IMG/VR virus record: IMGVR_UViG_3300025834_000005
DNA from: a virus
Length of the DNA stretch: 64,000 nucleotides
Direction: 5' to 3' (one strand)
Shown here: positions 14,850 through 36,806 of the stretch, one piece after another
Position numbering within the stretch: the first letter of the stretch is position 1
How the letters are laid out: the number at the start of each line of letters is the position of its first letter
Position numbers and translations under genes: made by a program
Notes under the pieces: model-generated
Databases searched by the model: none
What the model was told of the DNA's origin: nothing
Seen by the model: only the letters and a program-made list of their open reading frames with translations

Positions 14850-14879
14850 TTGCAGGTTACAAAATAATGATTACTTTTG
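14850..14879 (+). promoter_or_regulatory. Strong Bacteroidota-type promoter of cassette A (TTGCAG-N19-TACTTTTG)
   Basis: tagTTGCAGgttacaaaataatgatTACTTTTGtaccg. The same architecture occurs at cassettes B, C and D. Confidence 0.55.
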
Positions 14880-14907
14880 TACCGAAATAAAAAAATAATT
14901 AGAAACA

Positions 14908-14979
14908 ATGAGAACAATTTTTAACATAGTACCGCAACATCAACCACAACAATTGAAATCTTTTCAATCGAATGGCTGA
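14908..14979 (+). CDS. Leader mini-ORF A (23 aa, MRTIFNIVPQHQPQQLKSFQSNG)
   Basis: The run CCG CAA CAT CAA CCA CAA CAA (PQHQPQQ) uses only Pro/His/Gln, which are exactly the tRNA identities encoded downstream. A terminator follows. Confidence 0.5.
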   Translation: MRTIFNIVPQHQPQQLKSFQSNG

Positions 14980-15007
14980 ACTATGTAAAAAATAAGCATA
15001 CATAATG

Positions 15008-15042
15008 ATCCCCTTTAATTGAAAGATTAAAGGGGATTTTTT
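15008..15042 (+). terminator. Intrinsic terminator of cassette A
   Basis: cccctttaat-tgaaag-attaaagggg (10 bp stem) followed by a T-run. It ends 3 nt before the first tRNA-like gene. Confidence 0.7.
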
Positions 15043-15044
15043 AT

Positions 15045-15131
15045 ATAGGCGTAGACCTGTAGTTGGTAGCAGTCCTGATTTGGGATCAGGCGTAGTAAAA
15101 TACCTCGTGAGTTCGAGCCTCACCGCTTATA
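15045..15131 (+). tRNA. Atypical tRNA(UGG), 87 nt with 16-nt variable region
   Basis: Acceptor ATAGGCG/CGCTTAT. Anticodon arm CCTGA-TTTGGGA-TCAGG. T arm GTGAG-TTCGAGC-CTCAC. The D arm is irregular. Confidence 0.5.
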
Positions 15132-15142
15132 CAAATTTTTAA

Positions 15143-15667
15143 ATGATTTATATGGAAAAAATTAATAATATTATGATTGTCGCTGTTAATAAAGGATATT
15201 ACGCCAATGAAAATGGTGATATATTCTCAGTGAAGAAAAAGTTAATATTAGGAAAGTCAAAAAATGGTTATCTTCGTTTTTCGATTAGATGCAATGGATA
15301 TAGAGAGGTTGTCTTCGTTCACAAATTTGTAGCATATTTAAAGTATGGCGACAAGATGTTTGAAGATAATATTGAGGTTAGGCATTTTAATGGCGATTCA
15401 TCAGATAATTCATTTGAAAATATATTACTTGGGACACACTCAGATAATATGCAAGATATTTCAAAAATAGTGCGGATAACAAAAGCCTTAATAGCATCAA
15501 AAAAAGTAAGGGCTTTTGATGACGACACTGTTAATGAAATATTAAATGATAGAAAATTTGGAATGACATATAAAGACCTTTGCGCTAAATATGATACGAG
15601 TAAGTCAACGTTGAGTTACTTTTTCAATCATGCATATTATAGTGGTCTCAGAGAATTGAAAGAGTGA
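15143..15667 (+). CDS. HNH (HNH_3/NUMOD4-type) homing endonuclease
   Basis: VHKFVAYLKYG..VRHFNGDSSDNSFENILLGTHSDN motif. The gene is inserted between tRNA(UGG) copies. Confidence 0.7.
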   Translation: MIYMEKINNIMIVAVNKGYYANENGDIFSVKKKLILGKSKNGYLRFSIRCNGYREVVFVHKFVAYLKYGDKMFEDNIEVRHFNGDSSDNSFENILLGTHSDNMQDISKIVRITKALIASKKVRAFDDDTVNEILNDRKFGMTYKDLCAKYDTSKSTLSYFFNHAYYSGLRELKE

Positions 15668-15673
15668 ATATAC

Positions 15674-15747
15674 AGGGTAGTTATGCAGAGACTATACAAC
15701 GCAAGTTTGGAACTTGCGGTTCGTGGGTTTGAATCCCACCTACCCTA
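15674..15747 (+). tRNA. tRNA-Pro(UGG), weak D stem
   Basis: Acceptor AGGGTAG/CTACCCT. Anticodon arm GCAAG-TTTGGAA-CTTGC. T arm GTGGG-TTTGAAT-CCCAC. Confidence 0.6.
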
Positions 15748-15768
15748 CAAATTATTAGTTTGTAATAT

Positions 15769-15841
15769 AGAGTAGTATATCAATTGGCAGATTACCGCAT
15801 TTGGGATGCGGAGGTTCTGGGTTCGAGTCCCAGTTACTCTA
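15769..15841 (+). tRNA. tRNA-Pro(UGG)
   Basis: Acceptor AGAGTAG/TTACTCT. Anticodon arm CCGCA-TTTGGGA-TGCGG. T arm CTGGG-TTCGAGT-CCCAG. Confidence 0.8.
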
Positions 15842-15872
15842 CTGATTATCAATTAGTTGATAGTTATTAAAT

Positions 15873-15947
15873 GGTGTTTGTAGCTTAAATGGATAAAGCG
15901 CATGCCTGTGAAGCATGTACATGCGAGATCGTACCTCGTCTAACACC
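15873..15947 (+). tRNA. tRNA-His(GUG)
   Basis: G-1 opposite C73. Anticodon arm CATGC-CTGTGAA-GCATG. The T loop is the variant ATCGTAC. Confidence 0.8.
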
Positions 15948-15967
15948 CTAATTTTAAATTAAAGATC

Positions 15968-16732
15968 ATGTATTACGTTGTACAGAAGAATGTTTTTAGA
16001 GAAGAAAATTACGATAATTTGATTATCGCTTTGAATCGGTTAGAGTTGCCTTATGAAATCGTTGATGTGCTACCATTCGTAGACACCTTCGAATTCAAGA
16101 CAACCAGAAAGGATGTATTTCCTTTTGGTGCTGTGAAAATGTCGAGAATTGCCAAAGAATTGGACTGGAATCCAGGCTCTCAATTGTGTGACAATCATGA
16201 TTATAACGTATATAGTAAGTATTATAAGGAGAACTTACTTAATTACGATTCAAAGATCATTAAATTCGGTGATGACTTCTTTCAAACAGAAAGGTTCTTT
16301 GCAAGACCAACATTAGATACGAAAGTGTTTACAGGTAAAGTATTCGACATGGGCGAGTGGATTGAATTCAGAGATAATTCCTTTGCCAATGGACATAGCA
16401 CTTTACTGAACGCCGATACAGAAATTCAGATTTCTTCTGTTAAGAACATTCAGAACGAAATAAGATTCTGGATTGTGAAGGGCGAAATCGCCACAGCAAG
16501 TCAGTATTCTCTGGGTGGAAGATTCTGTGTGAATGCAAACGTTGATCAATCGGCATATGACTTTGTAAACAGAATGATAAAGATATTCGAATTAAACGAC
16601 ACCTTTATCATGGATGCATGCCTTGTTAATGGCGAATACAAAATAGTTGAATGCGGTTGCACTAATAGTGCTGGCTTCTACAGAGCAGACATGCAAAAAC
16701 TGCTTATGAAATTGGAAGACGCTTTCAATTAA
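15968..16732 (+). CDS. ATP-grasp fold protein (R2K-clade/DUF4343-like)
   Basis: FFARPTLDTKVFTGKVF, EIRFWIVKGEIATASQY and FIMDACLVNGEYKIVECGCTNSAGFY match the phage R2K ATP-grasp pattern. Confidence 0.55.
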   Translation: MYYVVQKNVFREENYDNLIIALNRLELPYEIVDVLPFVDTFEFKTTRKDVFPFGAVKMSRIAKELDWNPGSQLCDNHDYNVYSKYYKENLLNYDSKIIKFGDDFFQTERFFARPTLDTKVFTGKVFDMGEWIEFRDNSFANGHSTLLNADTEIQISSVKNIQNEIRFWIVKGEIATASQYSLGGRFCVNANVDQSAYDFVNRMIKIFELNDTFIMDACLVNGEYKIVECGCTNSAGFYRADMQKLLMKLEDAFN

Positions 16733-16739
16733 TATAAAT

Positions 16740-16812
16740 TGTTTCGTGGTGTAATTGGTAACACGTCTGACTCTGAATCAGTTGAGTGCAGGTTCGATCC
16801 CTGCCGAAACAA
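16740..16812 (+). tRNA. tRNA-Gln(CUG)
   Basis: Acceptor TGTTTCG/CGAAACA. Anticodon loop CTCTGAA. T arm GCAGG-TTCGATC-CCTGC. Confidence 0.8.
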
Positions 16813-16822
16813 CTAAACTATA

Positions 16823-16896
16823 TTGCCCTGTTATGTAATGGTTAGCATACGACACTTTGAATGTCGGAGTCATGGTTCGAGTCCATGCAGGGCAAC
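16823..16896 (+). tRNA. tRNA-Gln(UUG)
   Basis: Acceptor TTGCCCT/AGGGCAA. Anticodon arm CGACA-CTTTGAA-TGTCG. T arm CATGG-TTCGAGT-CCATG. Confidence 0.85.
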
Positions 16897-18587: not shown

Positions 18588-18626
18588 AAATATTTTAAAC
18601 TTTTTTGAATTATTTACTATTTATAT

Positions 18627-18656
18627 TTGCAGGTAATAAAAAAAGCATTACCTTTG
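18627..18656 (+). promoter_or_regulatory. Promoter of cassette B (TTGCAG-N-TACCTTTG)
   Basis: tatatTTGCAGgtaataaaaaaagcatTACCTTTGtaccg. Confidence 0.5.
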
Positions 18657-18709
18657 TACCGAAATTAATATTTACTTCCTTTAGGGAATCAAAAAAAAGA
18701 ATAGAAACG

Positions 18710-18844
18710 ATGAGAAATTTACTTAACATGGCACATTACATAGTCAATTCTAATGGGAATCAAAAGAACATGGAATTATTGGCAGTGGAACAGGTCAACC
18801 TCCTATTATGGGCGGATGAGGATACATTGTGCAATGCTGGTTAA
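18710..18844 (+). CDS. Leader mini-ORF B (44 aa)
   Basis: MRNLLNMAHYIVNSNGNQKNMELLAVEQVNLLLWADEDTLCNAG. The block ELLAVEQVNLLLWADED uses the Glu/Leu/Ala/Val/Trp/Asp codons served by the array that follows. Confidence 0.5.
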   Translation: MRNLLNMAHYIVNSNGNQKNMELLAVEQVNLLLWADEDTLCNAG

Positions 18845-18871
18845 GTAGAGTTTAATAATAATATTAAATAA

Positions 18872-18902
18872 AACCTCCAGCATACGTGTTGGAGGTTTTT
18901 TG
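18872..18902 (+). terminator. Intrinsic terminator of cassette B
   Basis: aacctcca-gcatacgtgt-tggaggtt followed by TTTT. Confidence 0.7.
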
Positions 18903-18915
18903 TTTATATGCGTTT

Positions 18916-18932
18916 TTTGACATGTTGGAATT
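18916..18932 (+). promoter_or_regulatory. Conserved 17-nt motif TTTGACATGTTGGAATT before the first tRNA of array B
   Basis: The identical 17-mer recurs at 35854..35870 before array D. It contains TTGACA. Confidence 0.4.
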
Positions 18933-35487: not shown

Positions 35488-35518
35488 TTTGGCGGTTGAG
35501 AAAATTGTATTACTTTTG
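35488..35518 (+). promoter_or_regulatory. Promoter of cassette D (TTTG-N19-TACTTTTG)
   Basis: atgTTTGgcggttgagaaaattgtatTACTTTTGtgccg. Confidence 0.5.
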
Positions 35519-35622
35519 TGCCGTGATCAACAAATGAAGCGACGAGATTTTATTTTAACACTTCTGAAACTTTTATGAAAATCACACTATTTATAAGTCT
35601 AAAAGCATTAATAAAAACGAAA

Positions 35623-35769
35623 ATGAAAAAGAACATATCATCATCAGTAACCATATCGGGAATAACAACGAGATCATCTCGCAGTTGTAATGGTATGTCT
35701 ATGTTCAATAGAATTTTTACAGGCATTAATACAGGCATACAAAAAATAGATTGGGTTCTCTTAATGTGA
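35623..35769 (+). CDS. Leader mini-ORF D (48 aa from ATG 35623; the frame is open from 35575)
   Basis: MKKNISSSVTISGITTRSSRSCNGMSMFNRIFTGINTGIQKIDWVLLM. A 36-codon block uses only N,I,S,T,G,R,C,M,F plus one V, the identities of the tRNAs downstream. A 14-codon uORF at 35534..35578 precedes it. Confidence 0.5.
   Translation: MKKNISSSVTISGITTRSSRSCNGMSMFNRIFTGINTGIQKIDWVLLM
35747..35757 (+). promoter_or_regulatory. Candidate antiterminator segment of cassette D
   Basis: TAGATTGGGTT matches 10 of 11 nt of the terminator 3' arm TAGATCGGGTT. It can pair with the 5' arm AACCCGATCTA and lies 10 nt upstream of the mini-ORF stop. Confidence 0.5.
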
Positions 35770-35792
35770 GAATATAAAACCTTAAAACAGGA

Positions 35793-35828
35793 AACCCGAT
35801 CTACCGCAAATAGATCGGGTTTTTTTGT
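35793..35828 (+). terminator. Intrinsic terminator of cassette D
   Basis: aacccgatcta-ccgcaaa-tagatcgggtt (11 bp stem) followed by T7. Confidence 0.8.
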
Positions 35829-35853
35829 TTGATAGCAGTAAGGCTATCGTTTC

Positions 35854-35870
35854 TTTGACATGTTGGAATT
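35854..35870 (+). promoter_or_regulatory. Conserved 17-nt motif TTTGACATGTTGGAATT before the first tRNA of array D
   Basis: Identical to 18916..18932. Lies 8 nt before the tRNA at 35878. Confidence 0.4.
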
Positions 35871-35877
35871 AAAATAA

Positions 35878-35962
35878 GCAAGGCTGATCGAGTGGTCGAA
35901 GGTAGGTGGCTGCAAACCATCTGGAAGATTTTCCCTCATTGGTTCGAATCCAATGCCTTGCT
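35878..35962 (+). tRNA. tRNA(GCA, Cys anticodon, U73) with class II shape (16-nt variable arm)
   Basis: Acceptor GCAAGGC/GCCTTGC. Ser-like D arm ATCGAGTGGTCGAAGGT. Anticodon arm GGTGG-CTGCAAA-CCATC. Variable arm T-GGAA-GATT-TTCC-CTC. T arm ATTGG-TTCGAAT-CCAAT. Confidence 0.7.
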
Positions 35963-35974
35963 CAAAATTTATAT

Positions 35975-36047
35975 TGGCTCTTAGCTCATTTGGTAGAGTT
36001 CTTCCCTGATACGGAAGCGGTGGTGGGTTCGAATCCCACAGAGCCAA
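35975..36047 (+). tRNA. tRNA-Ile(GAU)
   Basis: Acceptor TGGCTCT/AGAGCCA. Anticodon arm CTTCC-CTGATAC-GGAAG. T arm GTGGG-TTCGAAT-CCCAC. Confidence 0.9.
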
Positions 36048-36115
36048 CAACAAAGAAATAAAAAAAGTTATTTAATTTTGTAACCTTTTAAAAGTTTCTT
36101 CGTATAACTAAAAAT

Positions 36116-36198
36116 GGAAGGAGTCCGAATGGACGAGGACACGGTCTTGAAAACCGCTGGGTGTAAAAGCTTTATGGGTTCGATTCCCTTTTCTTCCG
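36116..36198 (+). tRNA. tRNA-Ser(UGA)
   Basis: Class II. Acceptor GGAAGGA/TTCTTCC. Anticodon loop CTTGAAA. T loop TTCGATT. Confidence 0.8.
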
Positions 36199-36462
36199 CA
36201 TAGCTGTTTGATCGACAGAATCATTCAGTCTGATATTGATAAGTAGTGTTAGTAATTATTCTGTTTATTTGCTAATAATATTTATTAAGTATCGTTTCCG
36301 AATTGCTTAAGATGCTGTCATTAAAATTCTGTTGGGACAATTAGAAAGGATGTATTGAACTACCCGATTATAAAAGGTCTCCTGAGATTTTGTGAATCTT
36401 TGTAATAAGGTTCGTGGTCGTGAGTACGAGGCTCACATCGGAAATAAAATTTTGCTTCAATT
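36199..36462 (+). other. 264-nt non-coding stretch inside the tRNA island (several hairpins; decayed tRNAs or unknown RNA)
   Basis: No credible ORF. Hairpins ctgt-ttgatcg-acag and gtgag-tacgagg-ctcac (T-arm-like but with a degenerate loop). Confidence 0.25.
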
Positions 36463-36536
36463 GGGGAGGTAGCTCAGTGGTAGTTAGCGGTGGAGTGAAG
36501 CCCCACAGGTCGTCGGTTCGATCCCGACTCTCCCCA
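36463..36536 (+). tRNA. tRNA-Phe(GAA)
   Basis: Acceptor GGGGAGG/TCTCCCC. Anticodon loop GTGAAGC. T arm GTCGG-TTCGATC-CCGAC. Confidence 0.8.
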
Positions 36537-36618
36537 CGAAAAACAATGGCGTTTAGTACTGTTACTTCACAGGAAATGAAACAAACACAGTACTTCTATC
36601 TACCTTGTTTTTATTATT

Positions 36619-36692
36619 GCAGGTGACGCATAAGTGGTGGTGCATCAGGTTGCCAATCTGAAATAGAGACGGATCGTTCCCGTTCACCTGCT
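36619..36692 (+). tRNA. tRNA-Gly(GCC)
   Basis: Acceptor GCAGGTG/CACCTGC. Anticodon arm TCAGG-TTGCCAA-TCTGA. T arm GACGG-ATCGTTC-CCGTT. Confidence 0.8.
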
Positions 36693-36706
36693 CCACAAAT
36701 TAAATT

Positions 36707-36792
36707 GCAGTAATCGCATAGTTGGTCGATTGCGCCAGCCTTCCAAGCTGGAAAGAGAAATCACGTCGAGGGTTCGAATCCCTCTTACTGCT
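36707..36792 (+). tRNA. tRNA(UCC, Gly anticodon, U73) with 16-nt variable region
   Basis: Acceptor GCAGTAA/TTACTGC. Anticodon arm CCAGC-CTTCCAA-GCTGG. Variable region AAAGAGAAATCACGTC. T arm GAGGG-TTCGAAT-CCCTC. Confidence 0.7.
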
Positions 36793-36806
36793 CAAAATTA
36801 TTAAAG

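Follow-up and report, generated by a model that had tools for sequence, protein, structure and literature searches.

What does a short open reading frame (ORF), with a promoter before it and an intrinsic terminator behind it, do at the head of a phage tRNA array? The locus that raises this question, cassette B, lies in a 64,000-nt stretch of viral DNA from IMG/VR record IMGVR_UViG_3300025834_000005 (referred to as the window). A first-pass annotation had proposed a leader-peptide attenuator for the tRNA array, and our folding and our comparison with relatives support that proposal: the ORF frame, the match between leader codons and array, and an antiterminator are all kept in the relatives. 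We consider it likely that cassette B is a ribosome-mediated (leader-peptide) transcription attenuator gating a phage tRNA operon; there are no transcript, ribosome-profiling or reporter data. What we observed in cassette B are its sequence elements, their conservation, their covariation and the codon statistics.

Organisation of cassette B

Promoter boxes of the cassettes were called with what we take to be the Bacteroidota promoter consensus. The promoter-like box TTACYTTTGTRCC occurs 6 times in the window, against 0.45 expected, and four of these boxes head cassettes A–D (at 14871, 18648, 23877 and 35510). The promoter and array of cassette B consist of the following elements.

18609–18631, plus strand: upstream promoter element ATTATTTACTATTTATATTTGCA, with a −33-like TTTG at 18626–18629; also in cassette C (2 matches in the window, 0 expected)
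18648–18660, plus strand: −7-type promoter box TTACCTTTGTACC, with TAnnTTTG at 18649–18656, from the promoter-box matches in the window
18946–20109, plus strand: the putatively regulated array of Asp, a tRNA-like element, Asp, Glu, Leu-CAA, Val, Leu-TAA, Leu-TAG, Leu-AAG, Ala and Trp
20112–20155, plus strand: closing terminator (predicted at 20112–20149), directly after tRNA-Trp

The transcript is predicted to start a few bases 3′ of the box at 18648–18660, and no promoter box was found between the attenuator terminator and the first tRNA of cassette B. ARAGORN and Rfam gave the anticodons Asp-GTC (twice), Glu-TTC, Leu-CAA, Val-TAC, Leu-TAA, Leu-TAG, Leu-AAG and Ala-TGC. For the last tRNA (20035–20109), ARAGORN gave Gly-TCC. 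Its counterparts by alignment, however, are the Trp-CCA tRNAs at the end of the same array in relatives, and it shares G as discriminator base with them; because of this alignment and discriminator we accepted it as Trp-CCA. The anticodon list given in the first-pass annotation was therefore right for the tRNAs that it named, with CCA resting on homology, and had missed the tRNA-like element at 19082–19154. That element has a 6-nt anticodon loop, is reported as '???' by ARAGORN and stays under the Rfam gathering score.

The leader ORF carries codons cognate to its array

18710–18844, plus strand: leader ORF of 44 codons plus TAA (ATG at 18710, TAA at 18842–18844), MRNLLNMAHYIVNSNGNQKNMELLAVEQVNLLLWADEDTLCNAG, with homologous in-frame ORFs in 11 relatives
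18773–18823, plus strand: regulatory codon run

The codon run had been quoted in the earlier annotation, and both its letters and its coordinates match the sequence exactly. In agreement with what was claimed there, only Gln and Asn lie outside the array set: 15 of the 17 codons specify Glu, Leu, Ala, Val, Trp or Asp and are thus cognate to the tRNA array at 18946–20109. None of 13,459 random 43-residue windows from the phage's own proteins contained a 17-codon stretch in which 15 or more codons were cognate. The codon background was taken from the 48 long ORFs of the window, where 31.4% of all residues are Asp, Glu, Leu, Val, Ala or Trp. Over the whole leader, 21 of 43 codons are cognate (background 0.314; binomial P = 0.0125), and this whole-ORF enrichment is only 1.56-fold because the window leader contains a 14-codon non-cognate insertion.

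The observation that the leader uses one codon for each Leu isoacceptor is not beyond chance. Five Leu codons would cover the four groups with a probability of about 0.17 under the Leu usage of the window, and CTG is absent from the leader in those relatives that do carry a Leu-CAG tRNA; we therefore rejected isoacceptor coverage as evidence. Synonymous codons in the B leader are rarer than in the phage's own genes (P = 0.006). Rare-codon bias was not significant for leaders A, C or D, nor for all relatives, and it was left out as a general argument. Leaders A, B and C have the A-rich start context TAGAAAYRATGA in common. Taken alone, the B peptide, with its hydrophobic stretch and acidic tail, could pass for a small membrane peptide.

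Predicted alternative helices in the leader transcript

18718–18732, plus strand: region 1, the anti-antiterminator strand in the MFE structure of the untranslated leader
18796–18803, plus strand: CAACCTCC, a near copy of the terminator arm, with an AAC CTC insertion relative to relatives
18834–18849, plus strand: region 2, in which ATGCTGG (18834–18840) is the antiterminator strand and 18836–18849 pairs with region 1
18870–18905, plus strand: intrinsic terminator with a 13-bp stem (−17.8 kcal/mol), a TACG loop and a T tract

The terminator hairpin (18870–18899) reads AAAACCTCCAGCA-TACG-TGTTGGAGGTTTT and is followed by the T tract. The first-pass annotation had seen no partner for an antiterminator and had left the mechanism unresolved; a helix search removed this difficulty by locating both ATGCTGG:CCAGCAT and region 1. 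ATGCTGG lies in codons AAT GCT GGT, just 5′ of TAA, and is exactly complementary to CCAGCAT (18877–18883, the core of region 3), which comprises the top of the terminator 5′ arm and the first loop base. The pairing forms in the MFE structure of the nascent RNA up to the loop, and an exact 7-mer complement within the 15-nt homologous zone is expected only 0.012 times by chance. The helix has only 7 bp, is weaker than the antiterminators of relatives and reaches −8.3 kcal/mol against −17.8 kcal/mol for the terminator. Support from dinucleotide shuffles of the upstream segment was modest for cassette B (18 of 500 as good), and the same control gave 3 of 500 for cassette C, 0 of 500 for D and 81 of 500 for A.

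Region 1 begins with TTTACTTAAC (18718–18727, codons 3–6), which pairs with GTTAAGTAGA (18840–18849), and in the MFE structure of the untranslated leader GGC (18730–18732) also pairs with GCT (18836–18838). This 1:2 duplex has a predicted energy of −14.8 kcal/mol, matched by 14 of 2000 shuffles (P about 0.007). Therefore, helices 1:2, 2:3 and 3:4 are all present in cassette B. The placement of region 1 at codons 3–6, far upstream of the regulatory run, is atypical. The cognate codons stop 13 nt short of region 2; judged from footprint size, a ribosome reaches about 13 nt ahead of its A site.

The near copy CAACCTCC had been pointed out in the first-pass annotation. Its position is exact, but its likeness to the terminator arm is within chance, with 0.17 such copies expected per ORF. 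As a necessary part of the switch it was rejected: it forms only a local hairpin with TGGGCGG, and the insertion is not in relatives. It is probably incidental and not region 1.

Conservation and covariation in related phages

Relatives were retrieved from IMG/VR and metagenomes with the 17-mer TTTGACATGTTGGAATT that lies downstream of the attenuator, and several of them are in genomes of 349–363 kb. The degenerate pattern TGGGCNGCNGANGANGAT returned mostly random matches, plus the useful loci L148, L207 and L246. Closer relatives of the window were found neither among GenBank phages, where nothing was similar beyond the tRNAs, nor in IMG/VR with three window-specific patterns (the sole match to the terminator pattern, L353, is unrelated). 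The protein adjoining the cassette has no IMG/VR relative. The sole Logan match was the source contig, SRR5829597_13236, whose gene calls omit the leader ORF. One relative of 362,763 bp was deposited twice (loci L330 and L333, on JBAZIW010000001.1, and L007, L013 and L021), as IMG/VR UViG 3300029288_000055 and as a 'Candidatus Paceibacterota' MAG contig; the latter, JBAZIW010000001.1, is probably a mis-binned phage genome.

A homologous B leader, MKNLL(D/N)I...LLWAA(D/E)ED.L..VG followed by the stop codon, occurs in 11 distinct metagenomic phage sequences. The leaders of the relatives have 27–31 codons, of which 66–76% are cognate, compared with a background of 31%. Across 12 distinct sequences the ATG and TAA remain in frame despite indels of 3 to 48 nt. 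Nine to ten consecutive columns of the leader alignment vary, yet only within D/E/L/V/A/W, and the arrays of relatives hold Asp, Glu, Val, Leu, Ala and Trp tRNAs wherever the contig reaches far enough. The correspondence between leader and array, whose absence from related genomes had been named beforehand as grounds for refutation, is thus conserved.

The antiterminator is also kept. In every relative, the ORF ends in a stretch (its last three codons and the T of TAA) that is reverse-complementary to the 5′ arm of the terminator; examples are GCAGTCGGGT, GTAGTCGGGT, TTGGTCGGGT and ACAGTCGGGT, with the matching 5′ arms ACCCGACTGC, ACCCGACTAC, ACCCGACCAA and ACCCGACTGT. The helix has 7–10 bp in the 10 sequences resolved by script, and 7 bp (GTCGGGT/ACCCGAC) in L063/L139, read by eye. 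On alignment A3, 96.3% of the antiterminator cells are paired, with 2 compensatory pairs, compared with 16–46% for a slid partner; the terminator of relatives is 97% paired. RNAalifold, run on nine sequences that ended before the 3′ arm, predicted the antiterminator unaided with 3 compensatory pairs. These covariation counts are small because the relatives are few and phylogenetically related. The window terminator differs from those of relatives, yet the antiterminator pairing is retained. The window terminator arm AAAACCTCC resembles a spacer element of relatives, ACAACCTCC, upstream of their terminator, from which we infer homology.

An equivalent of the 1:2 helix was found as well: TTACTCGAC, in codons 4–6 of relatives, pairs with GTCGGGTAA in the MFE structure of 4 of the 5 relatives folded (L005, L009, L013 and L032), and L030 had no convincing 1:2 helix in its MFE structure. 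Shuffles gave a duplex as good in 47 of 2000 cases for L005 and 16 of 2000 for L009.

Two further features were seen in related phages. A helix encloses the terminator and T tract (L005, L009, L013, L029, L032 and L063) and changes in step between genomes, with the pairs ACCTCC/GGAGGT, ACAACC/GGTTGT, ACACACTCC/GGGTGTGT and TACACACT/AGTGTGTA; because its register shifts between sequences, no column-wise covariation could be counted. Only read-through RNA would contain the whole helix, which may serve as a processing site. A tmRNA gene lies a few kb downstream of array B (L009, 9426–9781; L333, 6983–7347).

Four cassettes divide the amino acids

Cassettes A, B, C and D share one layout, in which promoter, short ORF, terminator and tRNAs follow one another, and have upstream elements in common. 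Array contents were taken from relaxed ARAGORN settings and Rfam.

14871–16896: cassette A, array Pro, His and Gln; leader MRTIFNIVPQHQPQQLKSFQSNG, 8 of 22 codons cognate, background 0.068
Cassette B (coordinates above): array Asp, Glu, Leu, Val, Ala and Trp; leader 21 of 43 cognate, background 0.314
23877–24567: cassette C, array Lys and Tyr; leader MMNATLKYGKTTKSYKKYKMKKDCV, 11 of 24 cognate, background 0.121
35510–36793 and beyond: cassette D, array Cys, Ile, Ser, Phe, Gly, Met, Asn, Thr and Arg; leader 45 of 63 cognate, background 0.497

The extent of cassette D past 36793 is assumed, with protein ORFs interspersed, and its amino-acid set comprises all plus-strand tRNAs up to 45361 and the D arrays of relatives. 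With this assignment, the four arrays together cover all 20 amino acids without overlap. The match between leader and array over the four cassettes has a Fisher combined P of 8e-11; among the 24 permutations, the actual pairing ranks first.

Each leader being enriched for its own array bears on a reading in which the switch would sense overall translation capacity, so that any slowing of the ribosome led to read-through and the codon content was inherited or incidental. The geometry would allow this, as it needs only a ribosome that reaches or misses the stop codon; the regulatory run does contain non-cognate Gln and Asn codons, and the Leu-isoacceptor coverage is not significant. We nevertheless find such a general sensor unlikely, since four sets that split the 20 amino acids without overlap each match their own leader, the cognate block is kept in 11 relatives and the B leader uses rarer synonymous codons than the phage genes.

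In cassette A, a classic three-helix set is formed by ATTGAAA (14951–57), TTTCAAT (14962–68) and ATTGAAA (15018–24), giving 1:2, 2:3 and 3:4 pairings. A 363-kb relative has an A-type leader (L021, 3150–3300) that reads MKNLINIVPQPQQHPQSLEWGNYA up to its stop. Within this ORF, GAATGGGG exactly complements the terminator arm CCCCATTC, so the antiterminator design holds for cassette A elsewhere.

The sister cassettes showed several other features. In cassette D, the 64-codon leader (35575–35769) is rich in Ile, Ser, Thr, Gly, Phe, Asn, Arg, Met and Cys and overlaps by ATGA with a preceding short ORF at 35534–35578 (MKRRDFILTLLKLL, then a stop); ACG stands where the start codon of A, B and C would align. 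Array A contains an HNH endonuclease ORF (15143–15667) and an ATP-grasp (R2K) ORF (15968–16732), which sit between the Pro, Pro/His and Gln tRNAs. A Lys-TTT-like tRNA at 24063–24134 has C for U at position 33 (loop CCTTTAA). Outside the four cassettes, a suppressor-type tRNA with anticodon CTA (25652–25726; 'Pyl' in ARAGORN) raises the possibility that TAG is reassigned or read through in some part of the genome.

A boxA-like motif between the proposed attenuator and the tRNAs

18916–18932, plus strand: conserved boxA-like leader motif TTTGACATGTTGGAATT, 3′ of the attenuator and 5′ of the first tRNA

The 17-mer occurs at 18916–18932, before tRNA-Asp of array B, and at 35854–35870, before tRNA-Cys of array D; in relatives the motif reads GTTCTTTGACATGTTGGAATT. 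The boxA consensus of gamma-proteobacteria is GYTCTTTAANA (PMC5725501). The motif matches it at 10 of 11 positions in relatives (GTTCTTTGACA) and at 9 of 11 in the window B copy, which has T at consensus position 4, a position mutated in a boxA mutant (PMC5725501). As in rrn operons, where boxA and Nus factors act as they do in lambda, the motif precedes long untranslated structured RNA genes. This is a resemblance only, drawn to a gamma-proteobacterial and not a Bacteroidota consensus, and there are no Nus binding data; that the motif is a Nus-type processive antitermination site remains a hypothesis.

An identical 17-mer lies ~12 nt after a TAnnTTTG box in several termite-gut Prevotellaceae MAG contigs (loci L260, L268, L283, L297, L302, L308, L311, L328 and L329). 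There it looks to stand at the 5′ end of cellular transcripts, although mis-binned phage DNA is not excluded, and its occurrence points to a Prevotellaceae-like host. Its position downstream of a promoter in these contigs argues that the 17-mer is a transcribed leader element and not a promoter. We also considered TTTGACATGTTGGAATT as a second promoter and rejected it, given this spacing in the MAGs and the tRNA that starts 2–3 nt after the motif in relatives.

The same motif is central to a different account, in which the ORF would be an ordinary small-protein gene (a hydrophobic/acidic micropeptide) with its own promoter and terminator, the tRNAs would be expressed independently and the codon match would be a by-product of peptide composition. 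The motif does contain TTGACA, and a sigma-70 scan lists TTGACA-16-AAAAAT at 18917–18944; in addition, the terminator is strong and the amino-acid sequence of the core LLWA(A)(D/E)ED.L is conserved. However, the position of the motif in the Prevotellaceae MAG contigs argues that it is transcribed, and in relatives its distance to the tRNA leaves no room for a −10 or −7 box. Nor would composition explain why four cassettes with quite unlike peptides each match their own array, or why the variable columns stay cognate though the residues (D/A/E/V/L) are chemically unlike. The last codons moreover covary with the terminator arm, which is not required of a peptide gene. We regard this account as improbable and retain attenuation by the leader peptide as our interpretation.

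Relation to known attenuators and phage tRNA clusters

Over cassette B, only tRNA matches reached the Rfam gathering score. Among the Rfam amino-acid leader families (His, Leu, Thr, Trp and Phe), the best match was a sub-threshold Phe_leader (19 bits against a 55-bit cut-off), and the T-box model gave no match even at an E-value of up to 10. A translation-independent RNA element, be it a riboswitch (T-box-like or protein-binding) or an sRNA ending at the terminator, is very hard to sustain: the untranslated leader does fold into a closed stable hairpin (−30.7 kcal/mol, ORF region) and sub-threshold Rfam sRNA/leader matches cover the terminator, but no family, T-box included, reaches the gathering score, start and stop codons of the homologous ORFs keep the same frame although indels of 3 to 48 nt separate them, and leaders A, B and C have their A-rich start context in common.

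Leader-peptide attenuation is textbook knowledge for amino-acid biosynthesis and a few synthetase operons. Leader-peptide attenuators include those of trp, his, leu, thr and pheA, and the multivalent ilvGMEDA leader carries Ile, Leu and Val codons; in the ilv and thr systems, one leader senses several amino acids. Cassette B resembles these biosynthesis attenuators in having an ORF rich in regulatory codons, helices 1:2, 2:3 and 3:4, and an intrinsic terminator before the putatively regulated genes. It differs in that its targets are tRNAs and not enzymes, that six amino acids would be sensed and that it lies in a phage. As the targets are tRNAs, the signal would be relieved by tRNA supply and not by the amino acid. 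Region 1 of cassette B is also at the ORF start, not over the regulatory codons, and neither its sequence nor covariance models link it to the Rfam leader families.

In E. coli, pheST (pheM leader) encodes phenylalanyl-tRNA synthetase and is attenuated, with feedback through the supply of charged tRNA. As proposed for cassette B, pheST shows leader-peptide attenuation of a component of the translation apparatus; unlike in cassette B, the target is a synthetase protein gene, a single amino acid is involved and the system is cellular. The logic of pheA attenuation has been described (PMC3082878). T-box elements share with the mechanism proposed for cassette B a terminator/antiterminator control that reports the state of specific tRNAs. 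They bind uncharged tRNA directly and need no ORF, in contrast to cassette B, where the frame is conserved. A supposed precedent, an attenuated E. coli tRNA-Phe gene, was discarded for pheV (MG1655), which has a promoter upstream but lacks a leader ORF.

T4, T5, jumbo and mega phages, like this phage, carry many tRNA genes in arrays of a large genome. For such clusters we found no leader-peptide control in the literature searched, whereas the arrays here fall into four units, each headed by a putative attenuator; indeed, that search yielded no account of tRNA genes or phage tRNA arrays being controlled by a leader peptide or attenuator. The proposed mechanism is classical, and its nearest counterparts are pheST and the multivalent leaders of ilv and thr. 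What is new is the tRNA-array target, the setting in a very large phage and the four-way division of the 20 amino acids.

A model for tRNA supply on demand

Translation of the ORF, coupling between ribosome and RNA polymerase, regulated read-through and the physiological trigger are all inferred. In the model, the Bacteroidota-type promoter (18626–18656) would start a transcript carrying the 44-codon ORF, and the outcome would be set by the position of the ribosome when RNA polymerase reaches the terminator. With efficient decoding, a ribosome at the TAA would cover 18834–18849, the terminator (18870–18899) would fold and transcription would stop before the tRNAs. When charged tRNA for Asp, Glu, Leu, Val, Ala or Trp runs low, the ribosome is predicted to stall within 18773–18823 and leave region 2 free. 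Region 2 could then pair with CCAGCAT and block the terminator, allowing read-through via the boxA-like motif into the eleven tRNA genes. If the leader is not translated, region 1 (18718–18732) would hold region 2 and termination would result. For region 1 to be masked while a ribosome is stalled, other ribosomes would have to be queued or initiating; this is assumed. The trigger might be, for example, the loss of host tRNAs or a mismatch in codon usage. Because the products of the array decode the leader, the circuit would be one of negative feedback: self-limiting, with tRNA made on demand.

Extending the model to the family, we lean towards the view that, in these very large Bacteroidota phages, four leader-peptide attenuators share out the tRNA genes for all 20 amino acids. 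Each leader would spell out the codons of the array behind it, so that decoding failure would be sensed channel by channel and only the needed tRNAs induced. Such demand-driven, self-limiting tRNA supply would possibly be an answer to tRNA-cleaving defences of the host or to codon mismatch. If the model is confirmed, the leader would predict the tRNAs of its cassette, providing a simple annotation rule for metagenomes, and the leaders would be natural, compact, codon-specific stall sensors for Bacteroidota, where genetic parts are few. Confirmation would also mean that phage tRNA arrays can be regulated and responsive to decoding stress and are not constitutive passengers, which would bear on why phages carry tRNAs, whether for codon compensation or for counter-defence against anticodon nucleases.
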